From NCBI GenBank assembly GCA_029210125.1, contig JARGPR010000001.1:326812-390811 (forward strand): a DNA stretch of 64,000 bases, read 5' to 3'. Below the pieces are notes generated by a model. The model was not told the origin of the DNA and ran no database searches. It saw nothing but the letters and a program-made list of their open reading frames with translations. The DNA comes from Pseudomonadales bacterium (GTDB lineage Bacteria; Pseudomonadota; Gammaproteobacteria; Pseudomonadales; JAHRWD01). Below are positions 1-55,320 of the stretch, in pieces. The position numbers and the translations under genes were made by a program. Every line of letters starts with the position of its first letter. The first letter of the stretch is position 1.

Positions 1-22
1 AATTTGAATCGGAGATTTTTAC

Positions 23-286
23 ATGAAAAATGATACTTCAATGATAGCAAAGGCAGCATTGGCTGGCGTATTGGCCGTTGGACTTAGCACTGGCGCCACC
101 AGTGCATTGGCGGGCAAGCCGGGTATGGAAAAATGCCAGGGTATAGTTAAAGCTGGAAAAAATGATTGTGGTACCAGTAAACACGGCTGTGCTGGCCAGG
201 CGGCAACGGATAACGCTTCCGAAGAGTGGATATATCTGCCGGTCGGTACCTGTGCAAAAATCGCAGGTGGAAAAGTAAAAAGCTAG
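23..286 (+). CDS. bufA: Bufferin-type RiPP precursor (DUF2282/BufA1-like): signal peptide plus 4-Cys core
   Basis: 87 aa. Hydrophobic signal ends SALA|GK. Core EKCQG..AGKNDCG..HGCAG..W..GTCAK fits the DUF2282 consensus as I remember it. DUF692, DUF2063 and DoxX genes follow directly. Confidence 0.75.
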
Positions 287-307
287 TAGCCTTTTGAGTT
301 TCGCAGG

Positions 308-1204
308 ATGTCGCATAAACCAGTAACCCCGTATCCGATATCGGGTACGGGGTTGGGTTTACGGTTCGAGCACTATCAGCGCATCCTTACGGAGCGGCCC
401 GATGTTCCCTGGTTTGAAGTTCTGGTCGATAACTACATGGGCAGAGGCGGATTACCGCTTCACTACCTCGAACAAGTTTGTCAGCAATACCCAATCACCT
501 TTCATGGGGTTGGCATGTCATTGGGTTCAACGGACCCTCTTAATCTCGAATACTTTAAACAGCTTAAACAACTGAAACAGCGCTTTGAACCAGTTCATAT
601 TTCGGATCACATAGCCTGGATCTCAGTGTCCCGCCAGTACATGCATGACCTTATGCCACTGCCCTACACACTTGAAGCTCTGAACTTGATTTCAGATCGA
701 ATCTCACAGGCGCAGGAAATATTGGGTGAATCTATCCTGGTTGAAAATCCCTCTAGTTATCTTTCATTTAGCAACTCTGAAATGACCGAGGTGGAATTTA
801 TTCAGGGCGTGCTGGACAAAAGTGGCTGTGAGCTTCTGTTGGATGTAAACAATATTTACGTCAGTGCAAAAAACCAGGGTTTTGATGCCTGTGCATACCT
901 TGATGGGATTCCAGTCGGTAAAGTTAAAGAGATACATCTGGCTGGTTTCGAATACAGAGAACATTATCTTTACGATACCCATGGCTACCAAGTGCGCGAA
1001 GAGGTCTGGGATTTGTATCAGTACGCCATTCAGCGTTTTGGTTCGGTGCCGACTTTAATCGAATGGGATAATGATGTGCCGGAGTTCGATACCTTGCTGG
1101 ATGAAGCCGAGAAAGCGAATTCAATTTTGAAGTGCTCTGTCACGCCCAGATCTGCGGCGCCCCTTCGTAGCTCAGTTAACAGCAGTGTAAAGAAATCTGC
1201 ATGA
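308..1204 (+). CDS. bufB: DUF692 / MNIO (multinuclear non-heme iron oxidative) enzyme, BufB/MbnB-like
   Basis: 298 aa. TIM-barrel-like DUF692 signature regions (GLGLR..H, FHGV..SLGS, ISDHIAW, VENPS, IHLAG). Starts 22 nt after the precursor stop. Confidence 0.75.
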   Translation: MSHKPVTPYPISGTGLGLRFEHYQRILTERPDVPWFEVLVDNYMGRGGLPLHYLEQVCQQYPITFHGVGMSLGSTDPLNLEYFKQLKQLKQRFEPVHISDHIAWISVSRQYMHDLMPLPYTLEALNLISDRISQAQEILGESILVENPSSYLSFSNSEMTEVEFIQGVLDKSGCELLLDVNNIYVSAKNQGFDACAYLDGIPVGKVKEIHLAGFEYREHYLYDTHGYQVREEVWDLYQYAIQRFGSVPTLIEWDNDVPEFDTLLDEAEKANSILKCSVTPRSAAPLRSSVNSSVKKSA

Positions 1205-1223
1205 ACTATTTCTATCCATCGCC

Positions 1224-2006
1224 GTGATTAACCTTCGTGAACAGCAGCAGCTATTTTTGGAGGCTGTTTTTAAGGGCGAAAACAGCGCCGCTAGTGAACA
1301 GCTTTCGCACCTGATTGTTGGGACTGAAAATATGTCCGCACAACAGCATATCAATATCTACCGTGATGGTGTGTTGGGCGGTTTAACCCAGGCATTGTCG
1401 GATACTTTTCCCGTATGTTTAGCGCTGGTAGGGGAGCAATTCTTTAATGCGATGGCTGGACGGTTTATACAGCAGCAGGCTTCGGGTAGTCCTGACTTAG
1501 GAGATTATAGTCCTCTATTTGCAGGGTTTATCGAAAAATTTGAACCTGCGGAACAACTTTTTTATTTGGCAGATGTTGCACGGCTAGAATGGCATTGGCA
1601 TCAGGTATTCCACGAAAGAGACGACAGTCGCCTCGATTTTGAAGCGTTATCTGAGGTGGGGGAGCAGGATGTTACGTTTCGCCTGGTTACGGCTGGACGG
1701 TTGATGTCATCCCCCTGGCCGATTCAAAAAATTTGGCAGGTTAATCAACCAGGTTATCAGGAAAGTGCTTCTGTCGATCTTGATGAAGACGAAGTGTTTT
1801 TATGGATTTGGCGTAACAGCTATGAAATGAGAATTGATCCCGTGGATGCAGATGAGTGGAAACTGCTAAATGCACTAGCGGAACATAAACCATTTTCTCA
1901 GGTCTGTGATGAACTGGCGGCGGAAAAAATTGATTTAATTTCACTGCTACCCAGGTTTGTTGAAAAAGGCTGGATTTGTGACTTTAGTGTTTGTGGCAAA
2001 GAATAA
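1224..2006 (+). CDS. bufC: DUF2063 partner protein of the MNIO enzyme (BufC-like)
   Basis: 260 aa with GTG start. N-terminal Q..F..A.. motif and INIYRD typical of DUF2063. Position immediately after the DUF692 gene. Confidence 0.65.
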   Translation: MINLREQQQLFLEAVFKGENSAASEQLSHLIVGTENMSAQQHINIYRDGVLGGLTQALSDTFPVCLALVGEQFFNAMAGRFIQQQASGSPDLGDYSPLFAGFIEKFEPAEQLFYLADVARLEWHWHQVFHERDDSRLDFEALSEVGEQDVTFRLVTAGRLMSSPWPIQKIWQVNQPGYQESASVDLDEDEVFLWIWRNSYEMRIDPVDADEWKLLNALAEHKPFSQVCDELAAEKIDLISLLPRFVEKGWICDFSVCGKE

Positions 2007-2023
2007 TAAGCAGGAGAAACAGG

Positions 2024-2467
2024 ATGCTAAGTACAATTGTCAAAATGAGAATCGGCTTATATTCATGGGTTGAACGGCTTACGCCTATTCTTGATATCGC
2101 GTTACGGATTTGGATAGCACGGGTATTTTTTCTTTCCGGCTTAACCAAAATTCAGACATGGGAAACGACCCTGTTGCTGTTTGAATATGAGTACGCGGTA
2201 CCGGTAATTTCGTCTCAGCTTGCGGCCTATATGGCAACCGCTGGTGAATTAATACTGCCGGCTTTGATTGCGTTGGGGTTGTTTACCCGCTTTGGGTTGG
2301 CTGGATTGTTTGTGCTGAACCTGGTCGCTGCTATCTCATATCCCGATATCAGCCCAGCGGGAATTCAGCAGCATATAATGTGGGGGCTATTGATGGTTGT
2401 GTTGCTTATCCATGGGCCAAAACTATTTTCAGTAGACAGATGGCTGGATAAAAAATTTGGAAACTAG
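2024..2467 (+). CDS. DoxX-family membrane protein (fourth gene of the bufferin operon)
   Basis: Four predicted TM helices. AGGAGAAACAGG precedes the ATG at 2024, so the track start at 1991 (TTG) is probably spurious. Confidence 0.65.
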   Translation: MLSTIVKMRIGLYSWVERLTPILDIALRIWIARVFFLSGLTKIQTWETTLLLFEYEYAVPVISSQLAAYMATAGELILPALIALGLFTRFGLAGLFVLNLVAAISYPDISPAGIQQHIMWGLLMVVLLIHGPKLFSVDRWLDKKFGN

Positions 2468-2525: not shown

Positions 2526-3740
2526 CTACTGACGATAGCTTTCCAAAAAATGCGCAATTTTTCCGATGGCGATTTCCAGCTCATCCTCCCGAGGTAAAAA
2601 CACCAATCTAAAGTGCTGGGTATCGGGCCAGTTAAAAGCGCTGCCCTGAACCACCAGAAGATGCTCCTGCCGCAGCAAGTCCAGTACCATTAATTCATCA
2701 TCTCTAATGGGATAAACATCCGGGTCTAGTTTGGGGAACAGGTAAAGCGCACCCTTCGGTTTTACACAACTTACACCAGGGATAGCGGTTAACAGCGCCC
2801 ATGCTCTGTCGCGCTGATCACGTAGCCTGCCACCGGGCAGGATTAGATCGTTAATGCTTTGGTAGCCACCCAGCGCGGTTTGAATCGCGTATTGCCCGGT
2901 TACGTTGCAGCATAAACGCATAGAGGAAAGCATATCGAGCCCTTCAATATAGTCTCTAGCTCGATGCTTTGCGCCACTTAAAATCATCCAGCCTACGCGA
3001 AAACCAGCGGATCGATAAGATTTGGATAGCCCGTTAAAAGTTACAAAAAATACGTCATCGGCAAGTGAAGCCGTAGGCGTATGGGCTACCTCATCGTAAA
3101 GAATCTTGTCATAAATTTCGTCAGAAAAAATAATCAAATCATGTTGGCGAGCCAATTCAACAATTTGTTCTAGTAGTTCTTTGCTGTACACAGCACCAGT
3201 AGGATTGTTTGGATTGATGATCACAATACCACGGGTATTGGGCGTGATTTTATTTTTGATATCATCGATATCCGGCTGCCAGTCTGCGGACTCATCACAT
3301 AAATAATGAACGGGTTTGCCACCGCTAAGGCTGACGGATGCGGTCCATAGTGGGTAATCCGGAGCAGGCAATAGAACTTCGTCGCCGCTATTAAGCAGCG
3401 CCTGCATTGCCATCTGAATCAGCTCGCTGGCACCGTTGCCCAGGTAGATATCGTCAATGGCTACGTCACTAATACCTAATCGCTGTGTTTCCTGCATCAC
3501 TGCTTTACGGGCAGAGTATATCCCCTTGGATTCTGAGTAGCCCTGGGCTGCCGGTAGGTTGCGGATCACGTCCATTACAATCTCTTCTGGCGCATCAAAG
3601 CCGAAGGGTGCCGGATTACCGATGTTGAGTTTGAGGATACGATGGCCATCCTCCTCCATAATATTGGCCTGTTGTAATACCGGGCCACGAATATCGTAGC
3701 AGACATCGGAGAGTTTGGTGGATTTCAAAAAATGTGACAT
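2526..3740 (-). CDS. alaA: PLP-dependent glutamate-pyruvate aminotransferase AlaA
   Basis: 404 aa. Long colinear similarity to E. coli AlaA/YfbQ as remembered (KLNIGNPAPFGFDAP, INPNNPTGAVYS, FNGLSKSYR). Confidence 0.85.
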   Translation of the reverse strand: MSHFLKSTKLSDVCYDIRGPVLQQANIMEEDGHRILKLNIGNPAPFGFDAPEEIVMDVIRNLPAAQGYSESKGIYSARKAVMQETQRLGISDVAIDDIYLGNGASELIQMAMQALLNSGDEVLLPAPDYPLWTASVSLSGGKPVHYLCDESADWQPDIDDIKNKITPNTRGIVIINPNNPTGAVYSKELLEQIVELARQHDLIIFSDEIYDKILYDEVAHTPTASLADDVFFVTFNGLSKSYRSAGFRVGWMILSGAKHRARDYIEGLDMLSSMRLCCNVTGQYAIQTALGGYQSINDLILPGGRLRDQRDRAWALLTAIPGVSCVKPKGALYLFPKLDPDVYPIRDDELMVLDLLRQEHLLVVQGSAFNWPDTQHFRLVFLPREDELEIAIGKIAHFLESYRQ

Positions 3741-3939
3741 GGGGACTTTGAATCTTTGATCAGTTACAGTGGGTAAAAAAATAGTACTGCGGAAACATCT
3801 GCTCCGCAGGGAGATGATTATATACCCTGACGGCCAGCCGCGAGAGATGATTTTTATATTCAGAGCGGTCAGAATGTATCAAGGTGTGCAATCAAACCCC
3901 ATAACTTAATTTGCCAGGAAATATGTAAGGATTATTACA

Positions 3940-4341
3940 ATGCCTAAATTCACCAAAACTGAACAGCAGTGGCGAGATCAATTAACCGAAGAGCAATATA
4001 GAGTAACTCGCGAGGCGGGAACCGAAAGACCATTCACCGGTGAATACTGCGACACCACTGAGAAGGGTGTATACCAGTGCGTCTGTTGCGGTACCGATCT
4101 ATTTGAATCCGCTAGCAAGTTCGATTCAGGTTGCGGTTGGCCCAGCTTTGATAGCTGTCTTGGAACCAGTGATGAAATAGTCTCTGAAGCGCCTGATGCC
4201 AGCCTGGGGCATATGCGAACAGAAATTACCTGCACTAACTGTGATGCTCATCTGGGTCACGTGTTTGAGGATGGCCCTACGGATACCGGTTTGCGGTATT
4301 GTGTGAACTCGGCCAGTTTGAATTTTGGTACCGAAGACTAA
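3940..4341 (+). CDS. msrB: Peptide-methionine (R)-S-oxide reductase MsrB
   Basis: 133 aa. Two CxxC zinc motifs ([17 protein letters not shown]) and the catalytic RYCVNS. Confidence 0.9.
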
Positions 4342-4404
4342 TGAATAGTGGGGTGGAGTTTAGATGGGCGAGGCGGGATAAGAGCAGTGAGCTAATCGTA
4401 TAAA

Positions 4405-4462
4405 TCAGCGCCGGGTCAAGGCGACCCAGCGCTGAAGAAGATCACCTCAGGGAGAGGTGATC
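4405..4462. terminator. Two adjacent hairpins between convergent msrB and the acyl-CoA synthetase gene
   Basis: 4405-4435 forms a 13-bp stem with one mismatch. 4440-4462 forms a perfect 9-bp stem GATCACCTC/GAGGTGATC. Confidence 0.5.
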
Positions 4463-4481
4463 ACGAGCGGTATAGAACGGA

Positions 4482-6089
4482 TTAAGCAATGCCAAGCTGC
4501 TCTTTAGCGTAATTGGTAACCCGTTTGTAGTCAGATTTACCATTTGGCGCTCTGAAGATAGTGTCGTTGAATAACACTCTCTTTGGAGCTTTATAGGCAG
4601 CCAATTTTGTTTTTACAAAGGCAATCATCTCTTTTTCTGTGGGTGTATGGCCAGGGGTTAATTGCACCAAAGCCGTTACCGACTGCCCCCATTTATCATC
4701 GGGAACACCTACTACCAATGCATCCTCAACCCCTTCATTGGACTTTAATACCTCTTCGATCTCTTCTGGGTATATTTTCTCACCGCCAGAGTTGATACAA
4801 ACACTACCGCGGCCCAGCAGAATCAAGCTGCCATCAGCACGCACCTGACACCAGTCACCGGGAATGCTGTATCGCTCGCCGTTGATGGTAGGGAAGGTTT
4901 TTTCGGTTTTCTCAGGGTCCTTGTAATATCCAACCGGCAGGTGGCCCCGCATTGCGATAAAACCAACCTCATCACTGCCAGGTGTGACCTCTTTGAAATC
5001 CTCGGTAAAGACCTTGCAGGTTGGGCCAATTTCAAATTTTGCCGACGCAACCTCTTCACCTGCACGGGTTTCAACACCACCAAAACCAAGTCCTTCCGAT
5101 GAACCAAATTTGTCCAGCAGTACCATGCCAGCATGATGCTTCAGCAGGCCTTTTTTGACATCCGGGCTCCACATTAGGCCCGATGAAGTGATTCCCACCA
5201 ATGAAGAAAGGTCCCATTTACCAGGGTTTTCTTCCAGGGCATTTAACATCGGTTTAGCAAAGGCATCACCAACAATTGAGATGGCATTCACTTTGTCCCG
5301 TTCAACGCAGGTCCATAGTTCATTGGCATCAAATTTGAGCATCGATTGGGTCACGATGCAGCCACCGCCAGCCATGCCCGCCATCGCTGTCAGCATACCG
5401 GTACCGTGCATCAGCGGACAGGCAACCAGTATCCTGGCACCACCGCCGGCCGCTTTAACGTTAGCGACATGTTCGGCAAGATCCTTTGGTGGAGCAGTGA
5501 GTGCATTTGAGCCGCCCTCGTCACCCCAAATGCTGGTTTGACGCCAGATCACACCCTTTGGCATGCCGGTGGTTCCACCGGTGTAGAGGAATACCTGATC
5601 ATCCGGGGATCGTTCAATATCGAGGGTTTTGCCGTCGCCGGTGTTGACGAGGTCTTCGTATTGAACTGCGCCTTCAATTCCTTGAGCGCCGTCCTGCACT
5701 TCAATCCAGTGCTCAACCTTTGGCAGGTTGGGTTTGATAGCTTCAACGCGATCAGAGAACTCGGTGGAGTAAAAGACTGCTTTAGAATCGGAGTTATCGA
5801 TAATGTAGTGAAGCTCATCCGCCACATACCGGTAGTTGATATTTACGTGAACCAGGCGTGCTTTGAAACAAGCAACTTGAAGCTCGCTGTATTCCGGGAC
5901 GTTTCGTAGATAAAAAGCGACTTTATCGTTGGTCGTTAGGCCTCGCTCTAGTAGTTGGGACGCCAGATTGTTGGTGCGGAAAATGAAATCAGACCAGGTA
6001 GTTACCTTACCGTCATGAATCAATGCGGGGTTATCCCCCGGTATCACTTCCCCAATCGCATCGCTTATATCGCCATAATTCCAGCCCAT
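4482..6089 (-). CDS. AMP-dependent acyl-CoA synthetase/ligase
   Basis: AMP-binding motif YTGGTTGMPKGV plus GDW..DG..LGR and the C-terminal K. GGAG lies 7 nt before the ATG at 6089, so the first 16 codons of the track ORF are probably not translated. Confidence 0.8.
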   Translation of the reverse strand: MGWNYGDISDAIGEVIPGDNPALIHDGKVTTWSDFIFRTNNLASQLLERGLTTNDKVAFYLRNVPEYSELQVACFKARLVHVNINYRYVADELHYIIDNSDSKAVFYSTEFSDRVEAIKPNLPKVEHWIEVQDGAQGIEGAVQYEDLVNTGDGKTLDIERSPDDQVFLYTGGTTGMPKGVIWRQTSIWGDEGGSNALTAPPKDLAEHVANVKAAGGGARILVACPLMHGTGMLTAMAGMAGGGCIVTQSMLKFDANELWTCVERDKVNAISIVGDAFAKPMLNALEENPGKWDLSSLVGITSSGLMWSPDVKKGLLKHHAGMVLLDKFGSSEGLGFGGVETRAGEEVASAKFEIGPTCKVFTEDFKEVTPGSDEVGFIAMRGHLPVGYYKDPEKTEKTFPTINGERYSIPGDWCQVRADGSLILLGRGSVCINSGGEKIYPEEIEEVLKSNEGVEDALVVGVPDDKWGQSVTALVQLTPGHTPTEKEMIAFVKTKLAAYKAPKRVLFNDTIFRAPNGKSDYKRVTNYAKEQLGIA

Positions 6090-6356
6090 AGTCATTCTCC
6101 AATTAGTTATTGTTAGATCCAAATGATATGCCGTCATGATAGCGCCCTATCCTCAAAAGTAGAAGAGTAGTTTGGAGTGGTCAGCTAAGGATCGAGGTGG
6201 CTGGTTGGTGGGTATCGGCCCTTAAACTGCCGGAGCAGGTGGGCCTGTGCGACACAAAAACTTAATAAAAGTGTCATTGGATTGTATTTTTTGGCCGTGA
6301 TGATCCCGTTATCCATTGCGAATGGCGCTTTGGATTACGCCTAAAATAGGTCAACT

Positions 6357-10923: not shown

Positions 10924-11208
10924 CGTATTCCTGGTTGGTGTGTTGCTCGATCCGGTGGGTGGTGGTTTATGGATTGGGATTATCGAGGCACTGGTTAGAT
11001 ACCGGGTTGTAAATATTCCCATATTTCGAGAGTTGGACTGACAGCAAACCACCAGAATGGTTATTCCATGTTTATATGTTTAATATCACAATACATGGAA
11101 AACCGATCCACCTATATCACCCCAATACGTGGAAAATCGTTTCCGCTTATTAACACTGTTATGAAAATAATATTTAAATTTACCAATATAATACTTAGGA
11201 GATATAAG

Positions 11209-11532
11209 ATGTTTAAAATTCGGACGTTATTAGGGGCTTGTGCATTGCTAGTTTCAAGTCATTCATTTGCTTGGGTTTCAGGAAGCGGAATGACAGTGGA
11301 GCAAGTGATGGTTCATGAAGAAGGTATTGGAAGAGATTACTTTGTCGCTTACTTCAAAAAAGACACAACAATATTCCGCTGTTACGTTAGCAATACTGAA
11401 ACTAGTACAATTTCTCTTATTTTGGCAATGCATATGTCAAAAACACCCGCCCAGGTTCATTGTCACGATAGCGATATGGCCATCGGGAGTTTCAGTGCTC
11501 ACAAACTTCATCGAATAATTACAAACATTTAG
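11209..11532 (+). CDS. Small secreted hypothetical protein
   Basis: AGGAG plus 8 nt precedes the ATG. Signal peptide MFKIRTLLGACALLVSSHSFA. First gene of the AT-rich islet. No family recognised. Confidence 0.4.
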   Translation: MFKIRTLLGACALLVSSHSFAWVSGSGMTVEQVMVHEEGIGRDYFVAYFKKDTTIFRCYVSNTETSTISLILAMHMSKTPAQVHCHDSDMAIGSFSAHKLHRIITNI

Positions 11533-11589
11533 TCTAATTTGCGTGGTATTCATAACAATGTGTTGCAAACGACATTTTCTGCTCCGCCG

Positions 11590-11790
11590 TTTTTGGTGTA
11601 TTCGCTTCGCTCAGTTTACACCAAAAAAAGCTCCACAAAAAATGCGTCTGAACACGGCGTTGAGGTGCGCTTCGTTCAACAGCGTCGGTACCCGAAAAAC
11701 AACAAGGGGTTCGAAGAGACCAACTGGAGTGTTATACCTAAAAAACAGGTACAACACTCCAGTTGGCACCTCAACGCCGGGCCGTTATGT
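11590..11790 (+). repeat. Highly structured non-coding element (three nested or adjacent inverted repeats)
   Basis: Three pairings: 11590-11600/11617-11627 (11 bp), 11655-11667/11767-11779 (13 bp, perfect), and 11720-11739/11747-11766 (20 bp, one mismatch, 7-nt loop). CATAAC (11551-56) and GTTATG (11784-89) bracket the element. Confidence 0.55.
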
Positions 11791-11805
11791 TTTCAAGGAG
11801 ATATC

Positions 11806-13551
11806 GTGCAAATAATCAAGAAGTCCCTTGATGTCTTTTTTGCAGGTGACATGCAGGTTGCGGTAGTGAAAGGGAAGTGGGGAGTCGGCAAAACGTATTT
11901 TTGGAATGCATACATTAAAGATTACATAAAGTCATCCCAATGTGAGCAAGTTGCATATAGCTACATATCTCTCTTTGGTAAAACAAGCCTTAAAGATGTA
12001 AAGCAATCTATTTTTCATTCGTCAAAGCCAATAAAGTCGGAAAGCGTAGTTGATGATAGTTTTGATAGCTCTTTTGAAGAAGAAAGCAAAATATTTAATC
12101 GCCTTCCGTGGATACGAGATGCTGTAGATAGGTCTAAAAGAAATGCACCACTTCTCAGTTGGCTAACTAAATTCTCAAAAGATGCCCCATTCTTGAAGCA
12201 ATACTCAACGCTTATTGCGTCCATGGAATATGGAATGGTTTGTAATTATGTGGTCTGTATAGATGACATTGAAAGGAAGAGTGAGGCACTTACAGTTAAA
12301 GAAGTCATGGGGCTGGTGGATGAGCTCGCCCAAAGAAAATCATGTAAGGTTATTCTCGTATTTAATGAGAAGTCACTTGATAGTGATAAAGACAAAGAAG
12401 ATTTCAACAAGTACAGAGAAAAGGTTGTAGATATAGAGCTTAACTACGATCCACCGTATGATGAGAATTTACAATGTGTAATTTCATCAGACTCGGCGTA
12501 TTACCTAAAAGTACTAGGGTTAACAAAAGAACTAAATATTAAAAATATACGTGTAATAAAGAAAATAAAGTGGGTTATTGATGAATTCTGGGGAATTGTA
12601 AAAGAACAAGAACAAAGGCTTATCGATGAATGGCTAACGCATGTTGTATTGTTTTGTTGGTCATACTATAAATCTGACGATGCTCTTCCTTTTGAGTTTA
12701 TTCAGGAACAGTTGCATGGAAATTCTTGGCTTTCGATATTGTCTGATGAAGAAAAGGAGGAAGATGAGAATACAAAAAAATATAAGTCAATTGCGACAAA
12801 CTTATCTCTTGGAAGTGCCATATATGATGAAGAGATTATAGCAATATTAAATCATGGTTTTTTCGATAAGGAAATGTTAAAAGAAAAAATATCCAAGATT
12901 TCTAGAGATATAGAATCTGATATTACAAGAGAGGCACTTTCCAAAGCATGGGATATCTATTCAGACTCATTTAAAGATAACCTTGAAGAATTCAAGTCAG
13001 AACTTCGAACTATAATAAATAGCGATATTGATAAAATAAACTTAAATGATTTTTCTTCTGCAATTGATGTGTTAGAGGAGTACGGAGAAGATGTAACGGA
13101 ATATATCGAAGAATACGTCAAAGTACATGTGGATACGCTAAAAAATATCGACCCAAGAGACTCTTGGGGCATAAGGAGAATTAGACACGCAGGTTTGATC
13201 GAAAAAATCGATAACTTACGAGAGCAATCAAAAAGCATGACTATCGACGAAGTCGCTTTAAAAATTGCCATAAATAGTGGATGGAACCCTGAAGATATTG
13301 AGTTCCTAGGATCATTGAGTATAGAAGATTATTTTAAATGGATGATGAGTGGTCCAGAGGATATAACCACAAAAATAAGAGGTGGCCTTCTAACATTTAG
13401 GAACCTCCAAACATCAAGCGAAGAAGATCGCATCAAATATGTAAGAATAACCACGAATGTCGTTGAGGCGCTTAAGAAAGTAGCAGCAACAAACGATCTT
13501 AATAGAAAGCGCGTCAAGTATATATATGAAGTGGACACAGAGAAAACATAA
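11806..13551 (+). CDS. KAP-family P-loop NTPase
   Basis: Walker A GKWGVGKTYFW and Walker B VVCIDDIERK fit the KAP pattern GxWGxGK[ST] / DDLDR. AGGAG plus 5 nt precedes the GTG at 11806. The upstream 267 nt of the track ORF is the structured repeat. Confidence 0.7.
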   Translation: MQIIKKSLDVFFAGDMQVAVVKGKWGVGKTYFWNAYIKDYIKSSQCEQVAYSYISLFGKTSLKDVKQSIFHSSKPIKSESVVDDSFDSSFEEESKIFNRLPWIRDAVDRSKRNAPLLSWLTKFSKDAPFLKQYSTLIASMEYGMVCNYVVCIDDIERKSEALTVKEVMGLVDELAQRKSCKVILVFNEKSLDSDKDKEDFNKYREKVVDIELNYDPPYDENLQCVISSDSAYYLKVLGLTKELNIKNIRVIKKIKWVIDEFWGIVKEQEQRLIDEWLTHVVLFCWSYYKSDDALPFEFIQEQLHGNSWLSILSDEEKEEDENTKKYKSIATNLSLGSAIYDEEIIAILNHGFFDKEMLKEKISKISRDIESDITREALSKAWDIYSDSFKDNLEEFKSELRTIINSDIDKINLNDFSSAIDVLEEYGEDVTEYIEEYVKVHVDTLKNIDPRDSWGIRRIRHAGLIEKIDNLREQSKSMTIDEVALKIAINSGWNPEDIEFLGSLSIEDYFKWMMSGPEDITTKIRGGLLTFRNLQTSSEEDRIKYVRITTNVVEALKKVAATNDLNRKRVKYIYEVDTEKT

Positions 13552-13632
13552 CTATTACATACACTCGGACAGTAAAAAGCGCCGCTCGTTCCTCGCTCTG
13601 CTTTTCACTGCCGGTGATGTAGAGCGTTAGTC
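13546..13632 (+). repeat. attC-like imperfect palindrome (candidate integron cassette recombination site)
   Basis: ACATAAC (contains the KAP stop codon), 4 nt, arm 13557-13580 pairing with 13600-13620 (20 bp, three 1-nt bulges all on the 5' arm), 5 nt, then GTTAGTC. Confidence 0.45.
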
Positions 13633-13653
13633 GGCGCATATAAAAAAAATACA

Positions 13654-14418
13654 ATGAATAGCATAATTTTTAAATACATGCCGTTTAGAGAAGAATTTTT
13701 TGAGAATCGATGGTTAAGGTTTACTCCTCGACTATCGCTTAATGATCCATTTGAAGTTAGGCCTTCATTTTCACAACATGCCGAATTTGTACACCGAGTA
13801 AATGGATATGGTGATTCTGTTGAATCTGTGATTCAAGAAATGGAAAGAAATCAATGCCTAGTATTAAAGGGTATCGCGATTCAGGACTTCGATATTTATG
13901 GCATTCTTTCGCTGACGGAGAAAAATGACAATCTGCTAATGTGGTCGCACTATGCAAGCGAACATGCCGGAATGGTGATTGGGTTTGATTCTAACCATGA
14001 TTTCTTTGATGCTACAAAGTCTGAAAACCAATATTTGAGAGAATGCGCAAATGAATACATCGGTGTACTAAAAAGAGTAAAGTATTCGAAATATCGTAAT
14101 ATGTCCGGTCGTTCTCTAAATGAATACTTTTACCTAAAGTCGAATGATTGGTGGACCGAGCGAGAAATACGGTATGTGCTTCCTATTGCAGAGGCAGATG
14201 AAATAATACATACAGAAAATAACGAGACTATGGCATTCTATGTTGTTCCTCCAGACGCAATAGTTTCAATTACTTTGGGTATGCGGATGGAAGGAAAGTC
14301 AGCGGAATTGGTGAAAAGAATCATAAGAGATAGGTGTGAGCTATCTCACATTAAAATTTTTCAAACGAAAATGTGTAATGAAACATTTAACCTGGTCGTT
14401 GAGTCAATTCAGGCTTAG
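13654..14418 (+). CDS. DUF2971-family protein
   Basis: 254 aa. IFKYMPF..LRFT....LNDPFE, LMWSHYA..HAGMVIGF and W..EREIRY match the DUF2971 pattern as remembered. Confidence 0.6.
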   Translation: MNSIIFKYMPFREEFFENRWLRFTPRLSLNDPFEVRPSFSQHAEFVHRVNGYGDSVESVIQEMERNQCLVLKGIAIQDFDIYGILSLTEKNDNLLMWSHYASEHAGMVIGFDSNHDFFDATKSENQYLRECANEYIGVLKRVKYSKYRNMSGRSLNEYFYLKSNDWWTEREIRYVLPIAEADEIIHTENNETMAFYVVPPDAIVSITLGMRMEGKSAELVKRIIRDRCELSHIKIFQTKMCNETFNLVVESIQA

Positions 14419-46496: not shown

Positions 46497-46853
46497 CTAT
46501 GTGGATTTATGCCAGCGGATATAGAGTGTACTGCTAATGAACAGTATTGTTGAAAATAGTGTGATCAGCGCACCTTCTAATTTGCTCGTTAAACTAAATA
46601 GCTCCAATATGCCTAGAGTGAAATAAACCAGTACAACAAAGCATAGCCAGGCATGGGTTCTGCCTGAACCCTGTATCAATCCCGGCATGAACATAAGTAG
46701 AGGGATTAGTTTGATGGCTAACATTGGCCATGGATATGTCCCACTGGGTTCAACAGTAGTAACAAAAAACCAGATAAGGGTAACGATTAACAGCAGATAG
46801 CTAATGGCGCTGCTGATTTTGCAGATCTGTGCCGGAAGACTCGATGTGCGCAT
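46497..46853 (-). CDS. Small 4-TM membrane protein (DUF2069-like)
   Basis: 118 aa, hydrophobic. Conserved arsC-wrbA-DUF2069 gene order as recalled from Pseudomonas. Confidence 0.5.
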   Translation of the reverse strand: MRTSSLPAQICKISSAISYLLLIVTLIWFFVTTVEPSGTYPWPMLAIKLIPLLMFMPGLIQGSGRTHAWLCFVVLVYFTLGILELFSLTSKLEGALITLFSTILFISSTLYIRWHKST

Positions 46854-46857
46854 CCCG

Positions 46858-47813
<956 letters not shown>

Positions 47814-48178
47814 GTAGGCATGCTCCTGTAGAGGGTTTCGCCATGTGTTTGGTAATAGATCTTGTCTAGCAAGGTTAACCAGGGTTAACGGTATCTGGCA
47901 GGCCAAATAGAAAAAGGCTCGCTAAGATAGCGGAATATTTTTTGCCGCTATCTAGACCTATGGCTATCTAAATTTGTGCTGAATTCAGGCGGGCTAAAAT
48001 ATCACATAAAGAAGGTTAGAACATCACTCAGTTTTGTAGGGAGATTATTTGTAGCGGATGGGTTTCTGGCGCAATGTGTGTGGTAATTCTGTTCGACAGG
48101 GATGGGCTTCAGGGCGAGGCATTCAGAATACTAAATGCCGTTGTGGTCGAAACGGCAGGTTGCGCGGAAAAAATCGTC

Positions 48179-51935: not shown

Positions 51936-53483
51936 TCAAACGATCTTCGAGTCCATCTTACCCCAGTATCGATCCCGAACCAGACGTTTGTACATTTTCC
52001 CGTTTGGGTGGCGCGGTAACTCCGCGTCAAAATCTACCGACCGTGGACACTTCACATGGGATATGTGATCTTTACAGAACTGAATCAATTCCTCTGCAAA
52101 TTCGTCGGTCGCATCCGCCATATCCATCGGTTGAACGACCGCTTTAACTTCTTCGCCAAAGTCTTCGTTGGGTACACCAATAACAGCTACGTCGGCCACC
52201 TTTGGATGGGTCACCAGATGGTTTTCAACCTCTTGAGGGTAGATATTTACGCCACCAGAGATGATCATAAATGCTTTACGATCAGTCAAATATAGATAGC
52301 CATCTTCATCTACACGACCCACATCACCGAGGGTGCTCCACTCCGGATTGTTTGGATGATAGGAGTCTTTGGTTTTCTCAGGGTCATTGTGATAAGCAAA
52401 TGTCTGCCCACTTTCAAAGTAGATAGTACCAGCTTCGCCAACCGGAAGTTCATTGCCTTCGTCGTCGCAGATATGCATTCCGCCCATCGCGCTGATACCA
52501 ACTGAACCTTTGTGGTCCATCCATTCCTCCGGGCCAATTGCGGTACTGCCATTGCCCTCTGAACCGCCGTAGTATTCATAGATGATCAATCCCCACCACT
52601 CCATCATCTGCTCTTTGATTTTTACAGGGCAGGGGGCTGCCGCGTGGATTGCGCACTGGTGTGAAGACAGGTCGTATTTATTGCGGGTCTCTTCAGGCAT
52701 TTTCAGCATACGCACAAACATCGTTGGTACCCACTGGCTGTGGGTGACCTTGTGCTCTTCAATCAGTTTTAGTGACTCTTCGGCATCAAATTTACCCATG
52801 ATAATAACGGTGCCACCCACCGCCAATATACAGCGCGAGTAACCCAAAGGCGCGGCGTGATAGAGCGGAGCAGGGGAGAGATAAACGGTATTTTCATCAA
52901 AGCCATAACGCGGTGGCAGCATTTCGGTCATTCGATTGAGGGTTGTAATGGAGCCACCGGGAAGCGGTTTCCGTACACCCTTGGGTCGACCGGTTGTACC
53001 GGAAGAATAGAGCATTTCAGTCCCAGCAGATTCATCCGCGAGGGGTTCAATTGATTGCGCTGCACAGGCTGCCTCAAGGCCTTCATAGCCAGGAATGGGA
53101 TTATCGAGCATGAATTTGGCGGAAACGCCGGGCAGTTTATCTACCAGTTTTTCTGCCACGGCACGCATTTCAAGGCTGGTGACAAATGCCTTGGCACCAC
53201 AATCCGCAACAATATAGTCCACTTCATCTTCAGTAAGTTTATTGCTGATAGGAGTGAAATAAAGGCCGGCTCTGTGGGCGGCAGCAGCGATAATATGGAA
53301 CCATTTGTGATTTTCCATAAAGAAGGCCATGCCGTCGCCGGTTTGTAAGCCGGCTTCACGAAATACCCGGGAAAGCTGAATCGATTTATCGTTGAGTTCT
53401 TTGTAGCTGACACGCTCGCCGGTTTCAGCCATCACATAAGCGGTTTTATCCGGATTATTGGCGGCATGAATTGAAATATGCAT
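51936..53483 (-). CDS. AMP-dependent acyl-CoA synthetase (tandem paralog 1)
   Basis: 515 aa. YSSGTTGRPKGV, YYGGSEG, GD.GR.DEDGYLY..DR and the C-terminal ..PNGKMYKR. Confidence 0.85.
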   Translation of the reverse strand: MHISIHAANNPDKTAYVMAETGERVSYKELNDKSIQLSRVFREAGLQTGDGMAFFMENHKWFHIIAAAAHRAGLYFTPISNKLTEDEVDYIVADCGAKAFVTSLEMRAVAEKLVDKLPGVSAKFMLDNPIPGYEGLEAACAAQSIEPLADESAGTEMLYSSGTTGRPKGVRKPLPGGSITTLNRMTEMLPPRYGFDENTVYLSPAPLYHAAPLGYSRCILAVGGTVIIMGKFDAEESLKLIEEHKVTHSQWVPTMFVRMLKMPEETRNKYDLSSHQCAIHAAAPCPVKIKEQMMEWWGLIIYEYYGGSEGNGSTAIGPEEWMDHKGSVGISAMGGMHICDDEGNELPVGEAGTIYFESGQTFAYHNDPEKTKDSYHPNNPEWSTLGDVGRVDEDGYLYLTDRKAFMIISGGVNIYPQEVENHLVTHPKVADVAVIGVPNEDFGEEVKAVVQPMDMADATDEFAEELIQFCKDHISHVKCPRSVDFDAELPRHPNGKMYKRLVRDRYWGKMDSKIV

Positions 53484-53717
53484 CCTTACTTCTCCAACAC
53501 ATTGTTTAGGTTTGCATCAAAAACTTCACATTTTGCCGATTCCGTCCTTTTGCAGATACGGGTTATAGAACGGTGGTTAATGGAGTAATTCTGTAAGTGC
53601 TGGCAATGAGGCTTTTGATATTTATTGTTATTTTAAAGCCTAACCACCATATTCAAGCTGCTGACAAAATGCAATATCTGATAGGCTTTGAAATATGGAG
53701 CTCAGCCAGAGAAGGGT

Positions 53718-53750
53718 AAAAAAAAGACCACTTATAAAGTGGCCTTTTTT
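53718..53750 (-). terminator. Terminator after paralog 2 (a copy of the 51.9-kb hairpin)
   Basis: A8-GACCACTTATAAAGTGGCC-T6, near-identical in architecture to 51887-51917. Confidence 0.65.
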
Positions 53751-53772
53751 AATTCTAAAACATCAATTGGGG

Positions 53773-55320
53773 TTAGACGATTTTGGAGTCCATCTTGCCC
53801 CAGTACCTGTCACGAACCAGGCGCTTATACATTTTGCCGTTCGGGTGACGTGGTAACTCAGCATCAAAATCTACTGAACGTGGGCACTTCACATGGGAGA
53901 TATGATCCTTGCAATACTGGATCAATTCCGCTGCAAATTCCTCGTTAGCATCCGCCATATCGACGGGTTGTATAACTGCTTTAACCTCTTCTCCGAAGTC
54001 TTCATTGGGCACACCAATGACTGCAACATCTGCAACTTTAGGGTGAGTCACCAGATGATTCTCAACTTCCTGTGGGTAGATATTGACACCACCGGAAATG
54101 ATCATAAATGCCTTACGGTCGGTCAAATAAAGGTAGCCATCTTCATCAACACGACCTACGTCACCGAGGGTGCTCCAATCGGGATGTTCCGGGTGGTAGC
54201 TGCCAGCGGTTTTTCCAGTATCGTTGTGATAGGTGAATACCACGCCACTTTCAAAATAGATGGTGCCCGGTTCGCCTGCTGGAAGCTCTTTGCCGTCTTC
54301 GCCGCAAATATGGATTGCTCCACCCGCGGATCGGCCAACAGAACCTTTGTGCTCCAGCCAGTCAGCAGAGTCAATAATGGTTGTACCATTACCTTCTGAG
54401 CCAGCGTAATACTCATGGATGATAGGGCCCCACCATTCAATCATCTGCTCTTTGATTTTAATCGGGCAGGGTGCTGCAGCGTGGATGGCAACCTGATGCG
54501 AAGAAAGGTCGTATTTAGTGCGAAGCTCAACAGGCTCTTTAAGGAACCGGACGAACATGGTCGGTACCCATTGGCTGCAGGTTACTTTGTATTTTTCAAT
54601 TAATCTCAACGCTTCATCAGTACCAAATTTGTCCATGATGATAACGGTACCGCCGACGGCCAAAATACAGCGTGAGTACCCTAGTGGTGCAGCGTGGTAC
54701 AGCGGTGCAGGACATAGATATACGGAGCTTTCATCAAAACCGTAACGAGGCGGTATAGTGTCGGTTAATGGTGAAGGTGAGCCCAGTGGAGCTCCTGTAA
54801 GTGGGCGTCGTACGCCCTTGGGGCGTCCAGTGGTACCGGACGAGTAAAGCATTTCAGAACCACAGGTTTCATCCGCGAGGGGTTCAGTAGATTGTTTAGC
54901 GGTAACCTCTTCAAGTGACTGATACCCATCAATGGTTCCATCCAACATGAATTTGTGCGACACGCCAGGCATCAGACTGTTCATTTCAGCCGCTAGTTCT
55001 TTGTATTCAGCTGAGGTGATAAACAGTTTTGCACCGCAGTCCGCAACAATATAGTCCACTTCTTCAGCGGTCAGCTTATTACTGATGGGGGTGAAATAAA
55101 GCCCAGCACGGTGTGCCGCACAGGCGATAATATGGAAATATTTGTGGTTTTCCAGATAGAAGGCAATTGCATCACCAACTTGTAGGCCGCATTCTCGAAA
55201 TAATCGAGACATCTGAATGGAGATATCGTTTAGCTCGCCAAAGGTAACGACTTCGCCAGTTGTTGCCATGATGTAGGCGGGTTTATCAGGGTTCTTTGCT
55301 GCGTGTATCGAAGGGTGCAT
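53773..55320 (-). CDS. AMP-dependent acyl-CoA synthetase (tandem paralog 2)
   Basis: 515 aa, colinear with paralog 1. The last ~135 residues are almost identical. Confidence 0.85.
   Translation of the reverse strand: MHPSIHAAKNPDKPAYIMATTGEVVTFGELNDISIQMSRLFRECGLQVGDAIAFYLENHKYFHIIACAAHRAGLYFTPISNKLTAEEVDYIVADCGAKLFITSAEYKELAAEMNSLMPGVSHKFMLDGTIDGYQSLEEVTAKQSTEPLADETCGSEMLYSSGTTGRPKGVRRPLTGAPLGSPSPLTDTIPPRYGFDESSVYLCPAPLYHAAPLGYSRCILAVGGTVIIMDKFGTDEALRLIEKYKVTCSQWVPTMFVRFLKEPVELRTKYDLSSHQVAIHAAAPCPIKIKEQMIEWWGPIIHEYYAGSEGNGTTIIDSADWLEHKGSVGRSAGGAIHICGEDGKELPAGEPGTIYFESGVVFTYHNDTGKTAGSYHPEHPDWSTLGDVGRVDEDGYLYLTDRKAFMIISGGVNIYPQEVENHLVTHPKVADVAVIGVPNEDFGEEVKAVIQPVDMADANEEFAAELIQYCKDHISHVKCPRSVDFDAELPRHPNGKMYKRLVRDRYWGKMDSKIV

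Follow-up and report, generated by a model that had tools for sequence, protein, structure and literature searches.

A probable bufferin-1-type bufABCD operon in an uncultured marine Pseudomonadales bacterium

In Caulobacter vibrioides, the copper-binding peptide bufferin 1 (Buf1) is produced by the four-gene operon buf1ABCD (CCNA_03363-03366; Leprevost et al. 2024, PMC11626156). Here we describe a putative counterpart at positions 23–2467 of a 64,000-nt stretch of a Pseudomonadales genome (GCA_029210125.1, contig JARGPR010000001.1, forward-strand positions 326,812–390,811), hereafter called the window. In Caulobacter, two of the four precursor cysteines, CysII and CysIII, become 5-thiooxazoles with a loss of 4.03 Da each, a conversion for which BufB and its partner BufC are both required and together suffice (PMC11626156). 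BufB, which has two Fe per protein, is a multinuclear non-haem iron oxidase (MNIO; the family was formerly named DUF692). The Sec signal peptide is removed and a disulfide joins CysI to CysIV, so that the net change is −10 Da (PMC11626156). The peptide binds one copper through two nitrogens and two sulfurs; the dissociation constant is ~6e-15 M when the ion is Cu(II) and ~7e-20 M when it is Cu(I), and the DoxX protein BufD is dispensable for both modification and copper protection (PMC11626156).

Several other described systems share parts of this architecture. The gold-induced (gig) genes of Cupriavidus metallidurans and their Legionella and Bordetella orthologues combine DUF2282, DUF692, DUF2063 and DoxX genes, as the window locus does, and are now recognised as buf; unlike the window locus, they have documented metal or BvgAS regulation. 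Bufferin 2 (BUF_6/12Cys; BufA2) likewise derives from a Sec-exported Cys-rich precursor, a BufB-type MNIO and a DUF2063 protein, and contains 5-thiooxazoles flanked by a disulfide, but its precursors, which contain six or twelve Cys, lack the DUF2282 signature, and DoxX is usually missing. Oxazolin (HvfABC/X of Haemophilus), fontiphorin and gonophorin share the MNIO, the DUF2063 (PME1) partner, 5-thiooxazoles and copper binding, with or without DoxX. The precursors of the EGKCG captophorins are made of EGKCG repeats and apparently bind several Cu in a disordered manner, whereas the window precursor contains no EGKCG. More distantly, the methanobactin system MbnABC uses an MNIO with the same set of iron ligands to modify Cys in a ribosomal peptide, yielding a copper-binding RiPP (a peptide made on the ribosome and modified after translation). 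Methanobactin differs, however, in its oxazolone/thioamide heterocycle, its partner protein MbnC, its leader peptide, its dedicated export and its role in copper acquisition, not detoxification. An earlier note on this stretch, made from the sequence alone, had summarised the bufferin literature, and its summary agrees with PMC11626156, PMC12452194 and bioRxiv 10.1101/2025.11.18.689057.

We assign window positions 23–2467, with a probability of about 0.85, to a functional bufABCD operon for a bufferin-1 (DUF2282-type) captophorin in a marine member of the Pseudomonadales. The window begins with four plus-strand open reading frames (ORFs), at 23–286, 308–1204 and 1224–2006, followed by a DoxX ORF that ends at 2467; number and order are identical to those of Caulobacter buf1ABCD. 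The gaps between bufA, bufB, bufC and bufD are 21, 19 and 17 nt, correcting the 22, 20 and ~18 nt reported earlier. We scored the products against Pfam models at their gathering thresholds and against NCBIfam models at their equivalog cutoffs. All four proteins score above threshold for the expected Pfam families, PF10048 (DUF2282), PF05114 (DUF692), PF09836 (DUF2063) and PF07681 (DoxX), so that the four-gene composition, positions and strand proposed by the earlier note are borne out. Of the accessions it had suggested, PF05114, PF09836 and PF07681 are right, and PF09917, offered for DUF2282, is wrong, the family being PF10048. In addition, its proposal of a bufferin-1-type MNIO RiPP is supported by concordant Pfam assignments, BufB equivalog score, iron ligands, gene order and purifying selection.

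The arrangement is widely conserved. Scanning a genome collection with BufB yielded 80 related loci, whose neighbouring genes we located by local tblastn. The precursor gene lies directly upstream of bufB in 74 of the 80, a bufC homologue lies downstream in 79, and a DoxX gene lies downstream in 57. Two lineages, L085 (~92% BufB identity) and L001 (~81%), were compared with the window gene by gene. The ratio of nonsynonymous to synonymous substitution rates (dN/dS) is 0.06–0.15 for the four buf genes against both lineages, and 0.08–0.15 for bufA, indicating that the operon is maintained by selection. Local tblastn finds no second buf locus in the 64-kb window.

The first gene, bufA (23–286, plus strand), encodes an 87-aa protein that scores 79.4 bits against PF10048 (cutoff 22.4), covering profile positions 1–52 of 53. 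Against the NCBIfam BufA2 model it reaches only 20.7 bits (cutoff 60), and being so far below that cutoff the precursor is of the Buf1 (DUF2282) type, not the Buf2 type. The N-terminus, by inspection, contains two lysines (Lys2 and Lys10), a run of hydrophobic residues from ~9 to 21 (maximum Kyte-Doolittle value 2.4) and an ALA/G motif after residue 30. By hydropathy and the −3/−1 rule, residues 1–30 (positions 23–112, plus strand) are predicted to form a Sec signal peptide with ALA/GKPG as the most canonical cleavage site, although the exact site is uncertain within about residues 24–31.

The predicted core carries four Cys with the spacing typical of the family, in a pattern that 74 precursors encoded beside related MNIOs share. 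As the earlier note had read them, Cys38, Cys49, Cys56 and Cys77 lie in the sequences EKCQG, KNDCG, HGCAG and GTCAK. By homology to Caulobacter Buf1, CysI (Cys38, 134–136) and CysIV (Cys77, 251–253) are predicted disulfide partners, and CysII (Cys49, 167–169) and CysIII (Cys56, 188–190), the latter with His54 at its −2 position, are predicted 5-thiooxazole sites, all encoded on the plus strand. The successive spacings are 11, 7 and 21, compared with 11, 8 and 21 in Caulobacter BufA1 (Cys12, Cys23, Cys31 and Cys52), so the CysI–CysII and CysIII–CysIV distances are the same and the CysII–CysIII loop, which includes His54, is shorter by one residue. Furthermore, the window core is shorter overall, with ~57 residues compared with 68, and lacks the alphaproteobacterial C-terminal tail of the ...LPDGRKGSLEPLDRDLP type. 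Every precursor that we recovered next to related MNIOs (75 listed) has the pattern C-G ... NDC ... C[AS]G ... G-x-C. Among these 75, a sample biased by having been drawn from the neighbours of BufB relatives, 13 share the short loop of the window precursor (155–196; BufA residues 45–58), with CysII-x6-CysIII and a His at −2, and 58 have the Caulobacter-like CysII-x7-CysIII loop without the His.

The second gene, bufB (308–1204, plus strand), encodes the predicted bufferin maturase, an MNIO of 298 aa. BufB scores 347 bits against PF05114 (MbnB_TglH_ChrH; cutoff 25, E = 6e-104) and 367 bits against the NCBIfam MNIO_BufB equivalog (cutoff 310). It stays below the equivalog cutoffs for HvfB (244.6 vs 360), MbnB (69.4 vs 325), ApyH and ChrH. 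The metal ligands of Methylosinus trichosporium MbnB are His54, His90, Glu133, Asp163, Asn166, His192, Asp208, His210 and Glu239 (PMC9060507). All nine have equivalents in BufB, namely H66, H101, E146, D179, N182, H210, D223, H225 and E252, as mapped by motif and not by superposition of structures. The motifs FHG, SDH, VEN, LDVNN, IHLAG, YDTHG and IEWD align with 3BWW and the MbnB structures using HMMER; relatives of BufB in the Protein Data Bank (PDB) are 3BWW, 8HCI and the MbnB structures. In addition, Asp254 corresponds to the proposed catalytic base of FonB, Asp249. The nine ligand positions and D254 are at least 97% conserved across 81 BufB homologues.

The remaining two genes encode the partner protein and a membrane protein. 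BufC (1224–2006, plus strand; 260 aa, GTG start), a DUF2063 MNIO partner of the PME1 type, scores 69.2 bits against PF09836 (cutoff 27.2) over residues 7–103. A single-sequence structure model of BufC has a mean predicted local distance difference test score of 47.6, too poor for fold comparison. BufD (2024–2467, plus strand; 147 aa), a membrane protein of the DoxX family, scores 55.5 bits against PF07681 (cutoff 23.6). Its most likely start is ATG 2024, in preference to the mechanically called 158-aa TTG ORF at 1991, because AGGAG is located 8 nt upstream of the ATG and the same start is found in L001.

By analogy with Caulobacter BufA1B1C1, a BufB–BufC complex in the cytoplasm would carry out four-electron oxidations of Cys49 and Cys56, turning them into 5-thiooxazoles. 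Sec would then export the modified peptide, and signal peptidase would cut near Ala30. In the periplasm, a Cys38–Cys77 disulfide would complete a folded mini-protein of ~57 residues, in which the thiooxazole N and S atoms would bind one Cu(I) or Cu(II) very tightly and thus buffer periplasmic copper under metal stress. The earlier note expected about −4 Da per modified Cys. This figure applies to CysII and CysIII; CysI and CysIV form a disulfide in Buf1, and two thiooxazoles plus one disulfide give an expected net shift of −10 Da (PMC11626156). For the predicted 57-aa core, of monoisotopic mass 5748.79 Da, the expected mature mass is ~5738.72 Da.

The region upstream of the window was read from the ENA metagenome contig L081, which is 100% identical to window positions 1–400 and extends 732 nt further upstream. 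L081 contains the 3′ end of hrpA, a 205-nt spacer and then bufA; the encoded hrpA product shares 74% identity with the C-terminal end of the 1326-aa HrpA helicase of L001. The order hrpA-bufABCD-aminotransferase (minus strand)-msrB is common to L001 and L085. The adjoining gene in L081, and likewise in L001 and L085, is thus a helicase gene, and not the regulator that the earlier note had expected upstream of the window. In this upstream neighbour, and in its uncultured gammaproteobacterial host, the window locus differs from that of Caulobacter. Among 74 related loci, an upstream NrsF gene (5) or an extracytoplasmic function (ECF) sigma factor gene (3) is found in a minority. Control by SigF/NrsF is an auxiliary trait of certain Buf1 clusters and does not define them.

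Transcription of bufA would start in the hrpA–bufA spacer, outside the window. Immediately before the bufA ATG, a GGAG Shine-Dalgarno-like motif (11–14, plus strand) is read from the sequence at a distance of 8 nt, and the surrounding block ATCGGAGATT is invariant across L081, L085, L086 and L001. We found no sigma-70-like promoter in the spacer, the sole scan match overlapping the start codon. No terminator was found after hrpA, so read-through from hrpA is possible. Footprinting of the hrpA–bufA spacers (L081 550–754; L085 2522–2715; L001 4422–4603) reveals one block, GAACTAA-N14-AGTCT-N4-TTGGGACT, that is conserved in three lineages where the spacer is otherwise divergent. Its GAAC-N17-GTCT portion resembles the −35/−10 pair of an ECF-type promoter. 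Across the window, GAACTAA-N14-AGTCT with at most two mismatches has 5 matches against 3.9 expected, which provides no evidence for a regulon. Given this lack of enrichment in the rest of the window, we put forward an ECF-like promoter only tentatively. Two other candidates were discarded. For a SigF promoter, L001 has only a degenerate GTAACG-N15-TGAA, and we do not rely on it. A riboswitch was rejected, the L081 leader giving only two sub-threshold Rfam matches at chance level and the whole window matching no family.

Several observations weigh against assignment to a functional bufferin-1 operon. The x6 loop with its His is a minority form, whereas the characterised model has an x7 loop without His, and because the loop subtype differs from that of the model, the details of metal coordination may differ too. 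Caulobacter SigF acts at GTAACC-N16-CGAA (PMC3511200); of 74 related loci, 14 have this motif ~80 nt upstream of bufA, compared with a 0.7% background. The window, unlike Caulobacter, has neither an adjacent sigF/nrsF pair nor that promoter: GTAAC-N17-CGAA is absent from the window, and none of ten window proteins of 146–205 aa that were scanned contains a Sigma70 or NrsF domain. The shorter core, the shorter loop with its His and the missing SigF/NrsF neighbour nevertheless all stay inside the variation of the family. Two of the proteins score below NCBIfam cutoffs, BufC for HvfC (52.2 vs 142, residues 39–234) and BufD for HvfX (47.8 vs 80); the HvfC and HvfX models describe a family that is sister to BufC and BufD. 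BufC, whose C-terminal domain is expected from the family to resemble a RiPP recognition element, gives no PDB match either with the single sequence or with a 23-sequence profile, 3DEE included. Finally, the evidence for the copper role comes from one model organism and from weak Cupriavidus phenotypes. Nevertheless, the sequence contains nothing that contradicts the bufferin-1 assignment, for which the chemistry is predicted by homology.

A doubtful refinement of the bufferin-1 assignment builds on two of the features described above. It holds that the metal is bound by the imidazole of the His as well as by the two thiooxazoles, and that the ECF-like spacer promoter (GAAC-N17-GTCT), distinct from SigF, drives the operon. 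If the His does take part, the subclass could differ from Caulobacter in coordination geometry, affinity or metal preference; if the promoter does, the operon would respond to a different stress input.

A broader departure, and one that we consider unlikely, is that the peptide does carry thiooxazoles but is directed at something other than copper, either another soft metal (Au, Cd, Hg or Cr-associated) or oxidative or chlorine stress. Inducers of gig/buf operons include gold, cadmium, chromium and further stresses, with BvgAS as the inducer in Bordetella; fusions of MerC to Buf1 suggest mercury, and the DoxX genes suggest other stresses. SigF/NrsF systems elsewhere are reported to respond to hypochlorite (PMC4436054). 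Within the window itself, the extra His in the modified loop and an msrB gene 1.5 kb downstream of the operon could be taken in the same sense. However, every characterised member of the family binds copper, and Buf1 picked Cu from a metal mixture. Genes specific for mercury, gold or chlorine are absent from the operon and its flanks, and msrB, set apart from the operon by the convergent gene for an aminotransferase, has the appearance of an adjacent housekeeping gene.

That the MNIO makes methanobactin-like oxazolone/thioamide pairs in place of 5-thiooxazoles is very improbable. The two products are isobaric, each at −4 Da per Cys, MbnB is a homologue of BufB, and oxazolone/thioamide was the original assignment for oxazolin (HvfA). 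Nevertheless, nuclear magnetic resonance assigned the heterocycle of bufferin 1 as a 5-thiooxazole, and oxazolin was revised to 5-thiooxazole by alkylation-assisted heteronuclear multiple bond correlation. All MNIOs with a DUF2063 (PME1) partner tested to date install 5-thiooxazoles (bioRxiv 10.1101/2025.11.18.689057). Here BufB reaches only 69 bits on the MbnB model, far below its cutoff of 325, and its partner is DUF2063, not MbnC.

Hardly credible is the notion that the DUF2282 protein stays unmodified, as a Cys protein anchored in the membrane or located in the periplasm, or that the operon is silent or in decay: the Pfam entry PF10048 still reads 'predicted integral membrane protein', the N-terminal segment is the only hydrophobic one in BufA, many DUF2282 genes have no adjacent MNIO and the promoter was not identified with confidence, but an MNIO with intact ligands and its partner directly follow the precursor, an ALA/G cleavage motif follows the hydrophobic segment, the Caulobacter signal peptide is cleaved and the peptide modified, and the low dN/dS across three lineages speaks against decay.

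Two assignments of the operon as a whole were also rejected. For an HvfABCX/oxazolin-type operon, EGKCG repeats are absent and the HvfB (244.6/360), HvfC (52.2/142) and HvfX (47.8/80) scores all fall short. For a methanobactin MbnABC operon, the MbnB score is 69.4 vs 325, the partner is DUF2063 and the precursor is DUF2282. The bufferin-1 assignment is the one that we retain.

Folding identifies two hairpins in and beside the operon. The strong hairpin with which the earlier note closed the operon is located at 2472–2507, between the convergent bufD and aminotransferase (2526–3740, minus strand) genes, and has 16 pairs (2 of them G-U), a 4-nt loop and a folding energy of −25.5 kcal/mol (z = −6.1). 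L085 (z = −7.2) and L001 (z = −4.2) have a hairpin of different sequence at the same site, indicating conservation of structure and not of sequence. A U-tract is missing on both strands, and a consensus terminator scan did not pick the hairpin up. Because the U-tract is lacking, a role as terminator is only presumed; the hairpin is probably a transcript-end or stabiliser element and not a textbook intrinsic terminator. The other hairpin, a near-perfect palindrome of 14 bp, occupies bufB codons 6–16 (324–355, plus strand; −27.1 kcal/mol, z = −5.2), and is only partly conserved: a 9-bp core is retained in L085, and the hairpin is weak in L001. It may adjust how much precursor transcript is made relative to enzyme transcript, or may have no function and simply follow from the coding sequence.

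Downstream of the operon, the flank at 2526–6137 is common to L001 and L085 and contains the class I/II aminotransferase gene (minus strand), msrB/SelR (plus strand) and a gene for an AMP-binding acyl-CoA synthetase (minus strand); we saw no evidence of a functional link between this flank and the buf operon. Elsewhere in the window, three plus-strand genes at 11068–14418, set between acyl-CoA metabolism genes, encode a 154-aa ORF without Pfam match, a 670-aa KAP P-loop NTPase and a 254-aa DUF2971 protein. The latter two are PADLOC candidates (PDC-S49, 87.9 bits, and PDC-S31, 96.6 bits, respectively), and the genes may form a small anti-phage defence islet. On the minus strand at 46497–47906, ~44 kb from buf, an ArsC-family gene stands beside a gene for an NADPH-dependent FMN-reductase (ArsH-like), with a 118-aa ORF downstream, in what looks like a cluster of the arsenic-resistance type. 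Also on the minus strand, at 51936–55320, two adjoining ORFs of equal length (515 aa) may be tandem paralogues. The window has a GC content of 45.6%, and its whole 64 kb yielded neither tRNA nor tmRNA genes, nor did any Rfam family reach its gathering threshold there.

The locus is an ordinary addition to a family that is well described and very abundant, for which more than 24,000 MNIO–DUF2063 loci have been counted and which about one in two of the reference genomes of Pseudomonadota contains (bioRxiv 10.1101/2025.11.18.689057). In GenBank, bufA, bufB and bufD match exactly MDF1642839.1, MDF1642840.1 and MDF1642842.1, proteins of a Pseudomonadales metagenome-assembled genome that carry domain-only labels. 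These could be renamed BufA1, BufB and BufD, respectively, with the DUF2063 gene between MDF1642840.1 and MDF1642842.1 as BufC. Beyond such annotation the significance is small, the locus being one more uncharacterised example from a marine, uncultured member of the Pseudomonadales. The host can be predicted to own a periplasmic copper-buffering peptide. Minor variants such as the short-loop precursor with its His, and the hrpA context in which no sigma factor gene is close by, could be useful for mapping the sequence–function rules of bufferins.

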